DNA of 64,000 bases, from positions 64,001 through 128,000 of the IMG/VR virus record IMGVR_UViG_3300032224_000591, one strand, 5' to 3'. How positions within the stretch are numbered: position 1 is the stretch's first letter; every line of letters starts with the position of its first letter. Made by a program: the position numbers and the translations under genes. This DNA comes from a virus. Positions 5,150 to 54,259 of this stretch are shown in pieces. The notes below the pieces were generated by a model. The model did no database searches and was not told where the DNA came from. It saw nothing but the letters and a program-made list of their open reading frames with translations.

Positions 5150-6079
5150 ATGAGAGCTTTAATACTTGCATTATCGATGATAGTGACAAATGCTGCATAT
5201 GCAGCCAAACAAATCGACATCTACTCTATGTTCTCGCCGGGTGCAGCGGGTACTATCATCGGTTACGAAGTAGTCAATAGGCTTAACACTGTACAGAGTG
5301 AGTATGAGTTTCGACTATCATCACTACCTGGTGCTGGTGGAGATATTGCCGCACTAAGAGTAATTGCACTAGCACGTACCGGTCAAGATGTTCTAATATG
5401 GCAGGGAACCGGTAGCTATACATTTGGTAAGTATACCTCTGCAAATATTAATGCATATGACCGTGATAATGATCTAGTACCTATTGCTTCATTCTCAGGT
5501 ACACCATTTCATTTAATGGTTGAACCAGATTCTGAGTTAAAAACATTAGCTGACCTAGTAAGTCAGTTTAATAAGAAGGACGTTGTTTACTTTGGTAGTA
5601 CAGCAACAAATCCGATAACACCATTCCTTAATGCTATCTTCATGAAGAGCAATGGCTTAAAGCCTTCGAAGGATCTAAACTATACAACACCATTTGATAT
5701 TACTAAAAGTGTCCTTAGTAAGGAATCTGAATATACTATATTCTCACCAACAGATGTTAGAGGTTTAAGATCACTAGTTATGTCAGGCCCAGAAAGATCT
5801 AGACTATATCCAAATGTACCTACAGGTAAAGAGCTTGGGATGAAAGACTTTGTCTTTACATCAACAATGCAGATTGCAGTTCCTAAGGAGAAGTCTGAGT
5901 TCGGTCTTAAGTTTACACGGATGATGCTTCAAATCTGCTATGACCAGAAGTTCAATGATGCTGTTGAAAAGATTGGATACGAAACAAAATGCCTCTCCGG
6001 CGATAAGCTAAAGAGCTCAATCAAAGAAGAGGCATTGATGATTAAAAAGTATGAAAACGATGTTGTCTGGAAGCCTTAA
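5150..6079 (+). CDS. TctC/Bug-family periplasmic substrate-binding protein
   Basis: Signal peptide (AYA-AK), LPGAGG motif, RS.LYPNVPTGKELG. Confidence 0.8.
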   Translation: MRALILALSMIVTNAAYAAKQIDIYSMFSPGAAGTIIGYEVVNRLNTVQSEYEFRLSSLPGAGGDIAALRVIALARTGQDVLIWQGTGSYTFGKYTSANINAYDRDNDLVPIASFSGTPFHLMVEPDSELKTLADLVSQFNKKDVVYFGSTATNPITPFLNAIFMKSNGLKPSKDLNYTTPFDITKSVLSKESEYTIFSPTDVRGLRSLVMSGPERSRLYPNVPTGKELGMKDFVFTSTMQIAVPKEKSEFGLKFTRMMLQICYDQKFNDAVEKIGYETKCLSGDKLKSSIKEEALMIKKYENDVVWKP

Positions 6080-14943: not shown

Positions 14944-15540
14944 ATGGCCTCAGGTTTCAATATCAGCACATTCAAGGCAAGAGGTCTAACCTCTGGTGGC
15001 GCACGCCCCTCGCTCTTCGAAGTGTATCTAACAATCCCGAGCTTCGTAGCAGCCGCTACGGGCTCGGACACAAAGTTCCGCTTTACCTGCCGCGCAGCAG
15101 CGATCCCGGCAGCAACAATCGGTACGGTCAATGTTCCATACTTTGGTCGTACAATTAAGCTAGCTGGCGACAGAACATTTGCTGACTGGACAGTCACAAT
15201 CATGAACGACGAAGACTTCATCGTTCGTGCAATGTTCGAGAAGTGGTCTAACGAACTTAATAAGCTTCAGGCTAACGTTCGTAAGGCTTATAACTCAGAG
15301 AATGACTATAAGGCAATCCTTAACGTCATTCAGTACAGCAAGGACGGCATTCCGATTCGTTCATACGATATTATCGGTGCGTTCCCAACTTCGGTTGATG
15401 CCATCACTCTTGACTGGGATACTACAAACCAGATCGAGCAGTTCGGTGTTACGTTTGCCTACGACTATTGGCTGCCAACCATTGGTTCAGAGTTAGTTAA
15501 CTCTTACTATGGTGATGCCGTTAGCCCAGTAGCGACCTAA
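14944..15540 (+). CDS. gp19: Tail tube protein gp19
   Basis: ARPSLFEV, GRTIKLAGDRTFADWTVT, YDYW. Confidence 0.95.
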   Translation: MASGFNISTFKARGLTSGGARPSLFEVYLTIPSFVAAATGSDTKFRFTCRAAAIPAATIGTVNVPYFGRTIKLAGDRTFADWTVTIMNDEDFIVRAMFEKWSNELNKLQANVRKAYNSENDYKAILNVIQYSKDGIPIRSYDIIGAFPTSVDAITLDWDTTNQIEQFGVTFAYDYWLPTIGSELVNSYYGDAVSPVAT

Positions 15541-15559
15541 TATCCTGATTGGTTATTGA

Positions 15560-15585
15560 GGGGGAGCTAGTCTCCCCCATTTTTT
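15560..15585 (+). terminator. Rho-independent terminator
   Basis: GGGGGAG-ctagt-CTCCCCC followed by a T-run. Confidence 0.75.
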
Positions 15586-15601
15586 GAAAAAAGGAAAATA
15601 G

Positions 15602-44641: not shown

Positions 44642-44791
44642 GAGTGTGGTTGCTGGTGACTCGTTGTGGAACCAGCAAACTTATCAATAGTAGTGGTTCG
44701 AAACGCTGCTATCTGAGAATACACCGGTGCGCTACGTACTCGGCGAAACACCAAAAGGGTGGGGTAAGAGCCCCAATGAGTATGGAAATTC

Positions 44792-44953: not shown

Positions 44954-45179
44954 AGTTCAGGACTAACAGAGGAAGCAAATGGTTACCCTCTGTGAATGAC
45001 AATAAGATGCTGGGAAACCCGATAAATCCAACCATGGAGTGCATCTAGTCAAGATTCTGAAACAGTGTGTGGTTACTGGTGACACTCCTAAGCTGTAGGA
45101 ACCTTACTAACTATAGAGTCGCGTACGGGATGGTGTGGCTTGGCGAGGCCTGTGTACACAACATCATCCCAACTAATTC

Positions 45180-45837: not shown

Positions 45838-46008
45838 ATTCGTAGGGGTTGAGATCCTACAAATCACCACCTGTTCCGGGTTCAAGCGGTCATGGTGGAT
45901 ATAGGCTAGGGCTGCCTGAAGTGTCCCTGTTTCTTGGACCGTCTTCATCTCGGAACCTACTCCGCGTAAAGGGAGAATGCTGGATGGCAGTAACCAGCGG
46001 CGAAATTT

Positions 46009-46083: not shown

Positions 46084-46242
46084 TCTTTGTGGTAAGGAAA
46101 GCCTATGGAATACCACTCGCTGCAGCAGCGTGTATGATAGGATCGGAGTAATTGACCGATAAAAGGAGAATGGGCAAGTCAAAGGCCTTGAAACCAATGA
46201 CCAGATACCTCACCTGCCATAATTTAATATAGAGGATAGTAG

Positions 46243-47190
46243 ATGAAACCTATTGCAGTATTTTGTAAAGATCCTGAACTATCTGTCTATTGGACTCTTA
46301 CAGATTTCTGTAATTTTAGTTGTAACTACTGTCCAGCTTTTCTTCATAGTGGCGAATATCATAAAGGTATATCCAAGGGTTTTCCAACAGATGAACAGAT
46401 AATTTCTTTTGTTGATAAATTAGAAGAGTTGTCTAAAACTAGAAAGCTTGAGGTTACACTAAGCGGTGGAGAGCCTACTCTTCATCCTATGTTACCCTAT
46501 ATCATAGATAGACTACGGGGCAAATGCATATTATGCATAACATCTAATGGTTCAAGAGGAAATAACTTTTGGAACACAATTCTTCCTGTGTCTACTGTTC
46601 AATTATCTCTTCATCCAGAGTTTACAAAAGCTAATAAAATCAATAGTCTCTCTAGAGTTATTATTGATAGTGGCACTGTTCTGAGATATAATTTATCATG
46701 TGATCCCAATAACTGGGAAAAAGTATTAGCTCTATATGATTCTATAGATGATGAGTTTAAACCTTTTATTACCCCAAGAGTTCTACAACATTGGGGTACT
46801 CAATCTGATGTAAAGCGTATATCTCTAACATATAGTCAAGAGCAATCTGCTTGGATTAAAGAGACGTTATTTAAGCATAGGCCATTGAATCCAGTAAACA
46901 AGTCTGATTATAAGATGTTTTTCTCTGATGGTTCATCTATATCAGCCCATAAAATGGGTGTTATAATAGTGAATGAATGGAATGATTTCAAAGGATGGAA
47001 ATGTTATGCTGGGTCACAATCTATCAATGCAACCTATTCAGGTGATGTGTTTGCTGGAGTGTGTGGATCAAAATTTCTAGGTAAGATTGATAATTTCGAA
47101 TTATTCAATGATCACATTATTTGTGAGAGACACCGATGTGTCTGTCTACCAGATATTAGAGCTAACAAACAATTAATCATTCCGGAATAG
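46243..47190 (+). CDS. Radical SAM protein with C-terminal Cys-rich (SPASM/twitch-like) region
   Basis: CNFSCNYC, SGGEP, TSNG, C.AG...C...C....C.C. Confidence 0.9.
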   Translation: MKPIAVFCKDPELSVYWTLTDFCNFSCNYCPAFLHSGEYHKGISKGFPTDEQIISFVDKLEELSKTRKLEVTLSGGEPTLHPMLPYIIDRLRGKCILCITSNGSRGNNFWNTILPVSTVQLSLHPEFTKANKINSLSRVIIDSGTVLRYNLSCDPNNWEKVLALYDSIDDEFKPFITPRVLQHWGTQSDVKRISLTYSQEQSAWIKETLFKHRPLNPVNKSDYKMFFSDGSSISAHKMGVIIVNEWNDFKGWKCYAGSQSINATYSGDVFAGVCGSKFLGKIDNFELFNDHIICERHRCVCLPDIRANKQLIIPE

Positions 47191-47256
47191 TTCAGCTGGT
47201 AGAACATCAGACTCTGAATCTGAGTGTCGGTGGTTCGAGTCCATCTTCCGGATCCA
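47181..47256 (+). tRNA. tRNA-Gln(CUG)
   Basis: tcaga-ctCTGaa-tctga, CCA. Confidence 0.95.
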
Positions 47257-47260
47257 ATAT

Positions 47261-47351
47261 GCGTGGGCTGCAGAGACGGTGGTTCTGCGACGGACTGTAA
47301 ATCCGTTCCCTAAGGGTAACATTGTAGGTTCGAATCCTTCCCCACGCACCA
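47261..47351 (+). tRNA. tRNA-Tyr(GUA)
   Basis: acgga-ctGTAaa-tccgt, long variable arm, CCA. Confidence 0.88.
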
Positions 47352-47484
47352 CTACAGGCTAGTTTTATGGTTCTCGAGATAAATAAAGCTAGGATTGTCA
47401 TCGGACCGTGCCCTACTGTGCGGCTGCCGATGTAAAAGAAGCCGCGTGGCGAGTCAGGAGCCAGTTAACGGTGGGATAGTTTAA

Positions 47485-47559
47485 GTTGCCTGGGCTAGAC
47501 GGTAAGGCGCGGGTCTGCAAAACCTTGAGAATCCGGTTCGACTCCGGAAGGTAACTCCA
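47485..47559 (+). tRNA. tRNA-Cys(GCA)
   Basis: ctGCAaa loop, U73-CCA. Confidence 0.9.
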
Positions 47560-47576
47560 AACAAAAGGAATATAAT

Positions 47577-47690
47577 ATGCAAACAGAACATGGTGATTTT
47601 GTTTATAGGCTTTGTGGTTGGATGTATGTCTACATGAAACGTGTTGGTGAAGCATATCACTATTACATTTCACACTCAAAGCTTCACTAA
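47577..47690 (+). CDS. 37-aa hypothetical peptide
   Basis: AAGGA RBS; MQTEHGDFVYRLCGW...SKLH*. Confidence 0.45.
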   Translation: MQTEHGDFVYRLCGWMYVYMKRVGEAYHYYISHSKLH

Positions 47691-47693
47691 TAC

Positions 47694-47771
47694 GTTTCGG
47701 TAGCTCAACTGGATGAGAGCATCGCGCTACGAACGCGAAGGTTGGGGGTTCGAATCCCTCTCGGAACACCA
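47694..47771 (+). tRNA. tRNA-Arg(ACG)
   Basis: tcgcg-ctACGaa-cgcga, CCA. Confidence 0.95.
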
Positions 47772-47775
47772 ATTC

Positions 47776-47850
47776 GCCGATGTAGCTCAGCGGTAGAGCA
47801 CTCGCTTCATACGCGAAGGGTCGTAGGTTCAAGTCCTACTTTCGGCACCA
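47776..47850 (+). tRNA. tRNA-Met/Ile2(CAU), elongator type
   Basis: ttCATac loop, G1-C72, CCA. Confidence 0.9.
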
Positions 47851-47855
47851 ATAAT

Positions 47856-47932
47856 CGGAGATTAGCGCAGTCTGGTAGCGTGGCTGGTTTGGAACCAGTA
47901 GGTCGCAGGTTCGAACCCTGCATCTCCGACCA
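47856..47932 (+). tRNA. tRNA-Pro(UGG)
   Basis: gctgg-ttTGGaa-ccagt, CCA. Confidence 0.95.
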
Positions 47933-47938
47933 CCTCTT

Positions 47939-48013
47939 GCGGAGGTAGCTCAGTGGTAGAGCTTCTGCTTGCCAAGCAGACGGTCGTGGGTTCGATCCCC
48001 ATTCTCCGCTCCA
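47939..48013 (+). tRNA. tRNA-Gly(GCC)
   Basis: tctgc-ttGCCaa-gcaga, TCCA. Confidence 0.95.
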
Positions 48014-48018
48014 TTAAT

Positions 48019-48095
48019 GCCCTCGTAGTCCAACTGGCAGAGGCGCCGGTCTTAGAAACCGGATGTTGTAAGTTCGAATCTTACCGGGGGCACCA
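48019..48095 (+). tRNA. tRNA-Leu(UAG), short variable loop
   Basis: ccggt-ctTAGaa-accgg, ACCA. Confidence 0.9.
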
Positions 48096-48310
48096 TATTC
48101 GATGAGCAGAATCGCATCCGATCTGAGAGTAAGCCACTATGTGGACCGTCTTTTCTCAGGTGAGCTCGGGGTAAGACATCTTACATAAGCTTGGTAACCC
48201 GGATTCTGAAAAGAGGGTCGACACTCGTCCTCATCGGACCTAATAGCACGCAGGGACCCTTGCTTTTATAGCATCGGTTCTTATTCCATAGTGAGTGTAA
48301 TGCGTGTCTC

Positions 48311-48385
48311 GCATCCTTAGCTTAGCGGTAGAGCGTTCCCTTGACATGGGAGAGGTCGTTGGTTCGATCCCAGCAGGATGCACCA
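48311..48385 (+). tRNA. tRNA-Val(GAC)
   Basis: ttccc-ttGACat-gggag, CCA. Confidence 0.93.
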
Positions 48386-48387
48386 TT

Positions 48388-48464
48388 GCCCATATAGCCA
48401 AACTGGTAAAGGCGGCAGTCTCAAAATCTGTAATCTGTAGGTTCAAATCCTACTGTGGGCACCA
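48388..48464 (+). tRNA. tRNA-Leu(CAA), short variable loop
   Basis: ctCAAaa loop, ACCA. Confidence 0.88.
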
Positions 48465-48465
48465 T

Positions 48466-48542
48466 GATTACGTAGCTCAGCAGGATAGAGCATCGGTTTC
48501 CTAAACCGAGGGTCGCATGTTCGAGTCATGCCGTGATCACCA
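48466..48542 (+). tRNA. tRNA-Arg(CCU)
   Basis: tcggt-ttCCTaa-accga, CCA. Confidence 0.95.
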
Positions 48543-48543
48543 T

Positions 48544-48619
48544 GCTGTCTTAGTGTAACTGGTAAGCACGTGAGATTGTGAATCTCGAGGTTTTGGTTCG
48601 AACCCAGAAGGCAGTACCA
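48544..48619 (+). tRNA. tRNA-His(GUG), A73, no encoded G-1
   Basis: tgaga-ttGTGaa-tctcg; ends GT-A-CCA; the preceding base is T. Confidence 0.9.
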
Positions 48620-48631
48620 TATAAATATGGC

Positions 48632-49279
48632 ATGAGGACAATTGCGCTATTCATCGACGAGTCGTCTGACGCCGCCGCAGAGTGTGGCGATGGAATAGTT
48701 GAAGCCCTATCTCCTCATTTTCATATCAAAAGATTCACCGAGGAAGAGTGTACTGCATCCACATTCAAGGGTGTGGATATGATTGCTTTTCCCGGTGGCG
48801 TTGGTGAGTCGGAAGACTATAACTATTTCTTTCGTCGAAAGAGAGAGATGGCTGTAGTCGAGTACCTTGCCAACGGTGGTAGTTATCTAGGAATCTGTGT
48901 CGGCGCTTATTGGGCCGGCTCGCATTATTTTGATGTACTTGATGGAGTGGATGCTGTACAATACATAAAGCGTCCAACAGCAGACATAAAACGAAGCTAC
49001 AATAAAGCTATCCCAGTCACATGGAATAGCAAACCTGAGCGGATGTTTTTTAGAGATGGCTGTGCCTTCATAGGAGATCAAACGAAGTTCGAAACTGTCG
49101 CTCGCTATGCAAATGGCGATCCGATGGCAATCATACAGGGCAAGATTGGCCTGATAGGTGCTTGTCCTGATTCATTACGTTCATGGTACATAGAACCATA
49201 CAACAAACCATTTTGGCATGATGGTGCACATCATCAGTTGCTACTAGAGTTCGTAAACAAAGTTGGAGCTTTCGTCTAG
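48632..49279 (+). CDS. BPL_N / class I glutamine amidotransferase-like protein
   Basis: FPGG.G, GG.YLGICVGAY.A; TATAAATA at 48620. Confidence 0.8.
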   Translation: MRTIALFIDESSDAAAECGDGIVEALSPHFHIKRFTEEECTASTFKGVDMIAFPGGVGESEDYNYFFRRKREMAVVEYLANGGSYLGICVGAYWAGSHYFDVLDGVDAVQYIKRPTADIKRSYNKAIPVTWNSKPERMFFRDGCAFIGDQTKFETVARYANGDPMAIIQGKIGLIGACPDSLRSWYIEPYNKPFWHDGAHHQLLLEFVNKVGAFV

Positions 49280-49341
49280 CGGTTCAGGACATCGCCCTCT
49301 CACGGCGAAGATCACGGGTTCGAATCCCGTAAGCTCTACCA
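49265..49341 (+). tRNA. tRNA-Glu(CUC)
   Basis: tcgcc-ctCTCac-ggcga, CCA. Confidence 0.93.
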
Positions 49342-49346
49342 AATAA

Positions 49347-49423
49347 CCCGTGTTCTTCTAAAGGCCTAGGAAAACTCGCTTTCAATGAGTGTAATGTCGG
49401 TTCGACTCCGTCACACGGGACCA
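49347..49423 (+). tRNA. tRNA-Glu(UUC)
   Basis: actcg-ctTTCaa-tgagt, CCA; one T-stem mismatch. Confidence 0.85.
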
Positions 49424-49427
49424 ATTC

Positions 49428-49503
49428 GCCTTCTTTGTATAGCTGGTGCGTACGCTGGTCTGAAGAACCAGAGGACTCCGTTCGATTCTGAGAGAAGGCA
49501 CCA
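49428..49503 (+). tRNA. tRNA-Phe(GAA)
   Basis: ctggt-ctGAAga-accag, CCA. Confidence 0.88.
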
Positions 49504-49509
49504 TAAATA

Positions 49510-49599
49510 GGAGAGTTGGCCGAGAGGCTTAAGGCACACGTTTGCTAAATGTGCGAACCCTAACCGGTTCCGTGAGTTCGAATCTCACACTCTCCGCCA
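49510..49599 (+). tRNA. tRNA-Ser(GCU)
   Basis: ttGCTaa loop, long variable arm, GCCA. Confidence 0.95.
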
Positions 49600-49603
49600 C
49601 TAT

Positions 49604-49677
49604 ATCGGTAAAGTGTTACGGTAGCACGATGGTCTCCAAAACCGCAAGCCTGGGTTCGACTCCTAGTACCGGTGCCA
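49604..49677 (+). tRNA. tRNA-Trp(CCA)
   Basis: ctCCAaa loop, GCCA. Confidence 0.9.
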
Positions 49678-49880
49678 AACATATATAGTTCGTCTGCCAC
49701 GGAATGTCAGTCGGAATAATAGTTAGTAGCTAGTCACTGCAACTACCGAGCCAACCGTGCCTCTAGATCTTGTTATATCAGACTGGTATAACTTAGGGAG
49801 TGACTTCCGAGATTGGCTGGATAGAGGGCGCTGCAGTGGGGCAGCAGGCAAGTAGCGGAGAGCTACACCCACAAGAATTA

Positions 49881-49964
49881 GGAGGGTAGCGTCTAAGGTA
49901 GACACACAGTCTTGAAAACTGCGCCACCTCACGGTTGATGGTTCGATTCCTTTACCCTCCGCCA
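49881..49964 (+). tRNA. tRNA-Ser(UGA)
   Basis: ctTGAaa loop, variable arm, GCCA. Confidence 0.88.
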
Positions 49965-50035
49965 TTATACGGTTAGTCGCGCTAAATAGACTCGTGTGGG
50001 CCACGGTTAGCCCACGACTTCAATTGGAGTTTATT

Positions 50036-50614
50036 ATGCAATTCATGAACTTATGGGCAACTCCTGTTGCCATCTTTCAAAATAGAGACTATAGAGATAT
50101 TAACGCTGAGATCCTTAAGCACGAGGAACTTAGGGGTTGCACGTTTCTTAATAAGAAGGATGTGTGGGACTATAGAGATACTGTCCCAGCCTTACAAACA
50201 CTATATGATTGGATGCTGGAATGCACGGCCAAGTACGCTGAAGAGTGTTTTGGTATGGAGTATACGCCAGAGATTTTCTATCATGGCCATGGTTCAATGA
50301 ACTTTCGTGGCAAGGGTGAAGAGGCACTTCTGCATACTCATCGCCTCACTACTGTGGTGATGACGTATTATATCGACGTCCATGACAATTGCGGCGACAT
50401 CAGACTCCTAGACCCCAGGAGCACGCTAGGTTGGATCAGCCGTAATGACGGCAGACCTTATAATCAGTACACACATAGTCCTAACAATGGTGAGCTTATC
50501 ATGTTCCCTGGTTGGGTTACACATATGGTTGCTCAGAACCAAACTGACAAGGAGCGTGTCGCTCTTACGTCAAACGTATATCTTAAGGATGAGCACAAGG
50601 ATAAAGTGTACTGA
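50036..50614 (+). CDS. Putative Fe(II)/2OG oxygenase (TIGR02466-like)
   Basis: HTH...YY...GDI...DPR...GEL.MFPGW..H.V..N....R....N. Confidence 0.8.
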   Translation: MQFMNLWATPVAIFQNRDYRDINAEILKHEELRGCTFLNKKDVWDYRDTVPALQTLYDWMLECTAKYAEECFGMEYTPEIFYHGHGSMNFRGKGEEALLHTHRLTTVVMTYYIDVHDNCGDIRLLDPRSTLGWISRNDGRPYNQYTHSPNNGELIMFPGWVTHMVAQNQTDKERVALTSNVYLKDEHKDKVY

Positions 50615-51099
50615 TGGATAGATTCTATGTAATTGACGATGTCTTTGACGAGCGTATTCGCCTCAAGATTCGTGACTTTGAATATGGTCCTGCATCACCA
50701 CAGAAGTGGTATGACTTGGGTTCTAATCCAGATCATGAGAAGATCTTTGACATTGCGGTCGAGCTTGGGTTTGGATTTATTCATGGCGCCGGTATCATTG
50801 GCTATGAGATGTGGTGCAACACCAGGGCTGTTGGTTGGCATTACGATCATGATGAGGTAGCCTCGCGTGAGGCTGGTAAGCTCATCACTCCTATCTTTGC
50901 TGCTGTATACTATGCCGAGGTGGCAAACCTAGAGGGTGGTGACCTAGTGACAGAGTCACATCGTATCACACCAAAGACTAATCGTCTTGTCATCATGAGC
51001 GGTGGTTTGAAGCATGCTGTGTATCCGTATGCAGGTACACGTAAGGCCATCACAATCAATCCATGGGATCATAAAATAATCAATGCGGGTGTGGTATAA
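50614..51099 (+). CDS. Fe(II)/2OG oxygenase (prolyl-hydroxylase-like)
   Basis: WHYD.DE, GG.L, P.TNRLV, H.V....G.R....N. Confidence 0.8.
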   Translation: MDRFYVIDDVFDERIRLKIRDFEYGPASPQKWYDLGSNPDHEKIFDIAVELGFGFIHGAGIIGYEMWCNTRAVGWHYDHDEVASREAGKLITPIFAAVYYAEVANLEGGDLVTESHRITPKTNRLVIMSGGLKHAVYPYAGTRKAITINPWDHKIINAGVV

Positions 51100-51159
51100 G
51101 GGTTGTGCCTTAGCCTTCCAAGCTAATGAAGACTGGTTCGAGTCCAGCCATCCGCTCCA
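51085..51159 (+). tRNA. tRNA-Gly(UCC)
   Basis: ttagc-ctTCCaa-gctaa, TCCA. Confidence 0.93.
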
Positions 51160-54130: not shown

Positions 54131-54259
54131 ATGACTAAGCAGATTACACATCGTAATCCAGTTGCTAAGGCTCTGAAGAGCCAGTCTTGCCGTGCGCGTG
54201 TGGTCGCTGCTAAACGCGGCAAGGGTTCCTACAAACGTCAGAGCTTCAAAAAGTTCTGA
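54131..54259 (+). CDS. arfA: ArfA-like alternative ribosome rescue factor (42 aa, not in ORF track)
   Basis: MTKQITHRNPVAKALKSQSCRARVVAAKRGKGSYKRQSFKKF*, matching ArfA N....L......R.RV....KGKGSY.R; TATAAATA at 54097 and AAGGT RBS. Confidence 0.7.
   Translation: MTKQITHRNPVAKALKSQSCRARVVAAKRGKGSYKRQSFKKF

Follow-up and report, generated by a model that had tools for sequence, protein, structure and literature searches.

The tRNA array of virus IMGVR_UViG_3300032224_000591 raises the question of why several of its protein-coding genes end not at a stop codon of their own but rather within the tRNA gene that follows. The array lies in the window considered here, namely, the 64-kb stretch corresponding to bases 64,001-128,000 of the viral genome. 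This genome is complete, spans 167,756 bp and has direct terminal repeats, with 29 of its 32 tRNA genes being found in the window. A first-pass annotation of the window had noted that three cargo genes terminate in this manner and proposed that tRNA maturation removes their stop codons, leaving non-stop mRNAs and so coupling output of the encoded enzymes to tRNA processing and ribosome rescue. The analysis presented below points to another answer, namely, that these genes have probably come to borrow stop codons from the adjacent tRNAs under tight genome packing.

All three junctions are found on the plus strand. The first gene (46243-47190) encodes a 315-residue radical S-adenosylmethionine (SAM) protein (PF04055, E 3.5e-10), with its TAG stop codon (47188-47190) corresponding to U8-A9-G10, i.e., nucleotides (nt) 8-10, of tRNA-Gln(CUG) (47181-47256; Rfam score 66.8 bits). 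As such, the last three codons of the gene (I-P-E) and the stop codon comprise nt 1-10 of the tRNA. The second gene (48632-49279, with the start ATG at 48632) encodes a 215-residue BPL_N (GATase-like) protein (PF09825, E 1.8e-9) and ends at a TAG (49277-49279) that corresponds to nt 13-15 of tRNA-Glu(CUC) (49265-49341; 65.1 bits), such that the last four codons (G-A-F-V) and the stop span nt 1-15. The third gene (50614-51099) encodes a 161-residue 2-oxoglutarate (2OG)-Fe(II) oxygenase (PF13640, 2OG-FeII_Oxy_3) and ends at a TAA (51097-51099) at nt 13-15 of tRNA-Gly(UCC) (51085-51159; 45.9 bits), with nt 1-15 of this tRNA encoding A-G-V-V and the stop. The placement of three cargo stop codons inside the next tRNA was thus borne out, with coordinates, Pfam and Rfam matches and the equivalent junction in a second assembly all in agreement.

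That assembly, the independent ENA assembly L163 (84% amino acid identity), contains the same radical SAM/tRNA-Gln junction and overlap, and led an assembly artefact to be rejected as the source of the layout. False tRNA calls were rejected on the basis of the Rfam scores and the encoded CCA ends, while shadow open reading frames (ORFs) were rejected in light of the Pfam matches and of nonsynonymous divergence (dN) being below synonymous divergence (dS). The values obtained (radical SAM versus L163, dN 0.10, dS 0.65; BPL_N versus L004, dN 0.13, dS saturated; 2OG oxygenase versus L092, dN 0.06, dS 1.26) indicate that the three cargo genes are under purifying selection.

The tRNA partners are similarly intact, with tRNA-Gln(CUG), tRNA-Glu(CUC) and tRNA-Gly(UCC) each presenting a full cloverleaf match and an encoded CCA, and each being the sole copy in the genome for its anticodon. 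This bears on the proposal that maturation of these tRNAs does not proceed from the cargo transcripts, either because the tRNAs are dead copies or because they rely on separate promoters, in which case no non-stop RNA would arise. The lower score of tRNA-Gly(UCC) is in line with such a scenario, as is the flagging of tRNA-Gln2 of coliphage T5, overlapped by hegD, as a pseudogene. Against it stand the cloverleaf matches, CCA ends and single-copy status of all three tRNAs. Furthermore, a scan for sigma-70-type promoters revealed no surplus over shuffled sequence, no late-promoter box was found directly upstream of the three overlapped tRNAs, and a transcript initiated within the cargo gene would still need RNase P, though it would spare the full mRNA. 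This explanation is, accordingly, deemed highly improbable.

To address how common the layout is, tRNAs and upstream ORFs of at least 80 codons were called in ~330 phage and metagenome loci, found via the three cargo proteins and via a tRNA-Ser pattern. In 40 of 167 non-redundant phage junctions, representing 95 protein families, the entire stop codon lies in the tRNA (at nt 8-10 in 19 cases and at nt 12-15 in 10); a further 6 junctions share one or two bases with the tRNA and 64 present a gap of 0-15 nt. Two genuine long read-throughs (L121 and L172) were added to the 40 short overlaps to give 42, while six overlaps of more than 100 nt were discarded, five because the tRNA call required a relaxed threshold and the sixth because it involved a CUA-anticodon call (L037). 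In related phage loci, stop borrowing is thus seen at 42 of 112 close junctions (~38%), spread over 21 unrelated families. No overlap was found in phages KVP40 and IME-SM1, each offering two close junctions. Bacterial control loci likewise yielded no overlaps (0/67), although since only 4 of these 67 were close junctions, this control reflects the rarity of tight packing more than that of borrowing.

The genome containing the window follows the same pattern. Four other close junctions in the window retain a stop codon of the gene's own, upstream of tRNA-Asn (gap of 7 nt), tRNA-Lys (6 nt), tRNA-Gln(UUG) (4 nt) and tRNA-Val (10 nt), as does one further junction elsewhere in the genome. Outside the window, a conserved gene encoding 136 residues (genome positions 161,616-162,026; G000) provides a fourth overlap, extending 10 nt into tRNA-Leu(UAA) and ending at nt 8-10. 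Close gene-gene junctions in the genome overlap as well (60/89). For example, the gene upstream of the overlapping 2OG oxygenase gene, itself encoding a 2OG-Fe(II) oxygenase (50036-50614, plus strand; PF13759), shares its TGA with the ATG that follows (TGATG), an ordinary gene-gene overlap that is the product of tight packing. Given the survey, the annotated overlaps of T5 and Synechococcus phage S-CBWM1 and these gene-gene overlap rates, three overlaps in one array are normal for phage tRNA arrays.

What most informs on the origin of the overlaps is where in the tRNA the stop codon falls. The gene's own stop is missing at 39 of 72 close junctions at which an in-frame stop is available from the tRNA within 24 nt, as compared to 3 of 40 at which none is (Fisher p 5e-7). 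This near-stop rule held when only homolog-supported ORFs were considered (35/60 versus 2/33), when the three query families were omitted (26/55 versus 1/36; p 1.5e-6) and when each family was represented by a single junction (median p 3e-4, worst 0.005). Moreover, 39 of the 40 short overlaps end within 24 nt, where 20.3 would be expected, and in 29 of the 40 the earliest of the three frames is used (p 5e-7). The frame classes overall are about even (42, 39 and 29), as expected were junctions formed at random and stops lost afterwards. At tRNA-Ser(GCU), all 12 genes that enter in the frame of nt 12-14, 10 of which are BPL_N genes, meet the T allele, which provides TGA (12/37 with T versus 0/20 with C). 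In two instances, conserved residues are encoded across the tRNA boundary, namely, the Leu of a conserved H-[LI] motif in the gene entering tRNA-Leu(UAA) and, in L168, a Lys common to all 84 of 84 CxCxxD-bearing radical SAM homologs.

The in-tRNA frame hence matters, and the mRNAs are therefore not always cut before ribosomes arrive. Most likely, ribosomes move into the tRNA sequence before it is cut, with termination taking place at the borrowed stop; we read the avoidance of long read-through as reflecting a cost, borne either by the protein or by the folding tRNA. Indirectly, the near-stop rule also speaks against most of the protein coming from cleaved mRNA and being tagged by tmRNA. Such a constraint is at odds with programmed regulation, in which tRNA maturation would generate non-stop templates and output would be set by the balance between tmRNA (transfer-messenger RNA) tagging and ArfA-mediated release, since the position of the stop within the tRNA should then be irrelevant. 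Indeed, the regulatory coupling put forward in the first-pass annotation is countered by borrowed stops falling near tRNA position +1 far beyond what a random frame would yield, a feature of relevance only if these stops are read on uncut RNA.

The overlaps are also labile. Among relatives, BPL_N overlaps tRNA-Glu(CUC) by 15 or 23 nt or tRNA-Ser(GCU) by 14 or 23 nt, while in others it has its own stop, ahead of tRNA-Cys, tRNA-Ser(UGA), tRNA-Arg or tRNA-Phe. The 2OG oxygenase gene overlaps tRNA-Gly by 15 or 21 nt or tRNA-Leu(CAA) or tRNA-Arg(ACG) by 10 nt, shares a single base with the tRNA, or has its own stop. In the BPL_N tree, the overlap state needs four changes, at least three of which are forced by strong branches. 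Regulatory coupling thus also has to contend with tRNA partners and stop positions that vary and with a BPL_N overlap gained or lost at least three times. It had been stated at the outset that relatives with stops upstream of the tRNA would mark the overlap as neutral; such stops were found often in BPL_N and 2OG oxygenase relatives (L044, L012, L150, L085, L116 and L170) but not in those of the radical SAM gene. In L116 and L170, which fall inside an overlapping clade, another ORF lies between BPL_N and tRNA-Ser, and BPL_N again has a stop. These small new ORFs (L116, reverse strand, 5393-5504; L170, 4195-4434) are positioned exactly between BPL_N and tRNA-Ser +1, which suggests that the 5' boundaries of tRNAs may serve as insertion sites for cargo.

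The residues encoded by the tRNAs appear to contribute little. The tails IPE, GAFV and AGVV are not conserved among relatives, and most BPL_N homologs found outside arrays end 3-5 residues past the same core. Because BPL_N in L044 has its own stop at the very position where the tRNA begins in the window, the tRNA-encoded residues of the three window genes would, by comparison, seem dispensable. No BPL_N relative was found among cultured phages.

Together, these observations can be accommodated as follows. In an array that would be co-transcribed, cargo genes come to lie flush against the 5' ends of tRNAs. A deletion or point change then removes the gene's own stop, a loss that would be tolerated if the tRNA supplies an in-frame stop nearby, with conserved bases of the tRNA 5' region (U8-A9-G10, nt 12-15 or nt 19-24) acting as suppliers. 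The uncut precursor would be translated, with termination at the borrowed stop adding three to four dispensable residues. It is established that RNase P cleaves at position +1 of the tRNA and that mRNAs lacking a stop are dealt with by tmRNA or ArfA/ArfB. A later RNase P cut would thus leave a stop-less fragment as a by-product, presumably cleared by general rescue involving host or phage tmRNA and perhaps the ArfA-like peptide. To this extent, the earlier claim that tRNA maturation yields non-stop mRNA stands, as a consequence of known RNase P behaviour that applies to any transcript from which a mature tRNA is released. Where a gene's own stop lies 0-10 nt ahead of a tRNA, the 3' end remaining after cleavage would be almost equally unprotected. 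The two states would accordingly differ little, which fits their interchange among relatives.

Several points weigh against stop borrowing as a full account. While the near-stop rule indicates that some ribosomes read uncut tRNA, it says nothing of the share of protein made in this way, and the survey draws on ORF calls that we made ourselves and on phages that are related and not independent of one another. BPL_N runs through the entire tRNA-Ser(GCU) in L121 (262-1011) and through the entire tRNA-Glu(UUC) and on into tRNA-Ser in L086/L172 (7334-8089). Finally, the radical SAM overlap measures 10 nt in all five non-redundant tRNA-adjacent relatives, whether the partner is tRNA-Gln, tRNA-Leu(UAG) or tRNA-Gly(GCC).

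One further proposal, which we regard as unlikely, is that in this clade of aquatic T4-like phages tRNA maturation serves as a selected timer, with full-length enzyme being made only until RNase P cuts. It is equally doubtful that, after the cut, phage tmRNA (encoding the tag ANDNAPLVMALAA) would destroy the product or that the ArfA-like peptide would release an active, shorter one. The radical SAM gene is the best candidate for such a mechanism, because its 10-nt overlap is kept across three tRNA partners. Alternatively, terminating ribosomes could delay tRNA folding and shield the mRNA from RNase P, with such protection during translation being selected (translation-gated release of the tRNA). 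With nt 8-15 in its A site, a ribosome necessarily covers the 5' strand of the acceptor stem, and both the near-stop rule and the persistent radical SAM overlap are compatible with this idea. Still, an own stop 0-10 nt upstream is commoner (64/167) and also places a ribosome over the tRNA 5' end, such that an overlap would add little, and the two states swap among relatives; we thus see translation-gated release as quite improbable.

Ribosome rescue was considered next. The genome encodes an alphaproteobacterial-type two-piece tmRNA (genome positions 15,208-15,595; RF01849, 106.7 bits), the type of which suggests an alphaproteobacterial host, as well as a 42-residue ArfA-like peptide (54131-54259, plus strand; PF03889, E 1e-5, 25.3 bits against a cut-off of 25.5). 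The latter is the product of a real gene with relatives. Its TGA is its own, lying 6 nt ahead of tRNA-Lys(UUU) and thus outside the overlaps. Both factors are present in close relatives G001 and G040, and a tmRNA scored above the cut-off in 8 of 21 relatives. The first-pass annotation was therefore correct in invoking these factors, although a dependence of the layout on either was not supported. Overlaps occur in 10 of 19 ArfA-positive and 9 of 24 ArfA-negative phages (p 0.37, a comparison of low power given few and partly incomplete genomes). Neither an ArfA match nor a tmRNA above the cut-off was found in T5 or S-CBWM1, yet both have overlaps, and a phage rescue factor is hence not required. 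Clean-up capacity may nonetheless make the layout cheaper.

These findings bear equally on programmed non-stop regulation. In its favour are the co-occurrence of tmRNA and ArfA-like peptide in this genome and in both close relatives, the radical SAM overlap held in 5/5 relatives, the fact that truncated products would retain every conserved residue in the window genome, and the precedent of a similar hypothesis put forward for selB/selC (PMC8124441). Apart from the constraint on stop position, it is countered by the lability of the overlap, its presence in 21 unrelated families and in phages lacking rescue factors, the lack of enrichment with ArfA in the low-power comparison and the own stop of this genome's ArfA-like gene. 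On balance, such regulation is thought unlikely, with stop borrowing under tight packing remaining the preferred explanation.

A different arrangement was seen in L446/L447 (G032, G001), where the basic core of a predicted ArfA-like ORF (reverse strand, 1501-1670) ends (...KGYKRK) exactly at +1 of tRNA-Arg(UCU), with the ORF continuing in frame through the whole tRNA for 26 more residues. Because this ORF breaks the near-stop rule and mirrors Escherichia coli arfA, it is a better candidate for non-stop control dependent on tRNA processing than are the cargo genes.

Other features of the array were also noted. T4-like genes are present in the genome, such as that encoding a clamp loader (phrog_168), and a T4 late-promoter-type TATAAATA box (48620-48627, plus strand; exact match) lies between tRNA-His and the BPL_N start, immediately following the CCA of the former and 4 nt ahead of the ATG, with no Shine-Dalgarno sequence. 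A similar box exists in several relatives. The box would act as a late promoter, and the BPL_N mRNA may be leaderless. An Rfam scan of the array returned only tRNAs, with RNase P RNA not being found, and single-strand folding of the junctions was uninformative (z -0.07 to -1.09). Non-coding spacers of 130-225 nt without Rfam matches separate tRNAs in the window (44642-44791, 44954-45179, 45838-46008, 46084-46242, 47352-47484, 48096-48310 and 49678-49880); by analogy with the T5 array, in which stable RNAs have been annotated, these spacers may correspond to stable RNAs. In several relatives (L099, 1399-1473; L112; L116; L170, 1981-2055; L182; and L096) but not in the window genome, an amber-reading tRNA with a CUA anticodon is encoded, and in arrays bearing this tRNA, borrowed stops are mostly TAG.

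As regards genome architecture, what emerges is modest, namely, that the tRNA genes of phages also serve to terminate translation, with roughly a third of the genes packed against them having given up their own stop. Annotation rules that bar gene-tRNA overlap will hence drop real genes or tRNAs. The near-stop rule, moreover, implies that ribosomes and RNase P compete for phage precursors. Nothing shows the layout to be a regulatory switch; were it to prove a selected one, the presence of tmRNA and ArfA-like genes in such phages would be easier to understand. The layout itself is already known, being annotated in T5 and S-CBWM1, and the idea that processing yields non-stop mRNA has been published as a hypothesis (PMC8124441). 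In the literature searched, where coverage of subscription papers was thin, neither a statement of the near-stop rule nor a paper on phage gene-tRNA stop overlaps was found.

That hypothesis concerns selB/selC of Alpha- and Gammaproteobacteria, for which processing was proposed to leave a non-stop mRNA (Mukai, 2021; PMC8124441). There, as here, an ORF extends into a same-strand tRNA, and certain relatives have lost this trait. However, in selB/selC the whole tRNA-Sec is usually nested and the pair is functionally linked and highly conserved, whereas the window genes present overlaps of 10-15 nt and no nested tRNA, swap partners and have no evident link to the tRNA. The whole-tRNA read-through by BPL_N in L121 and L086/L172 resembles the nested selC case. 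In the known case of an mRNA rendered stop-less by RNA processing, E. coli arfA is made non-stop by RNase III or a terminator, is sorted by tmRNA and loses a hydrophobic inhibitory tail of 17-18 residues (PMC8012679). Unlike arfA, which itself encodes a rescue factor, the window genes lose only three or four variable residues (IPE, GAFV and AGVV) rather than a long inhibitory or destabilising tail, and the phage ArfA-like gene has its own stop. A processing site kept such that the stop is always removed, as in arfA, is seen only in the radical SAM gene (5/5) and not in BPL_N or the 2OG oxygenase gene.

The closest parallels are found in phages. In T5 (NC_005859), annotated genes end 6-24 nt inside a tRNA (hegD/tRNA-Gln2, hegC/tRNA-Ser2, T5.069/tRNA-Asn and T5.057/tRNA-Met), accounting for 4 of 10 close junctions, with all four stops within 24 nt. 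T5 differs in not being T4-like, in lacking an ArfA or tmRNA match, and in that two of these genes are not metabolic cargo but instead encode HNH homing endonucleases. In S-CBWM1 (MG450654), gp35 overlaps tRNA-Thr by an identical 10 nt, ending at U8-A9-G10, although this is a cyanophage with no ArfA match and no tmRNA above the cut-off. With overlaps that are short (≤24 nt), tRNA partners that vary and gene families that are unrelated, the window junctions are best assigned to the T5 type of gene-tRNA 3' overlap, in which a real gene has its stop codon in the 5' part of an intact, same-strand tRNA.

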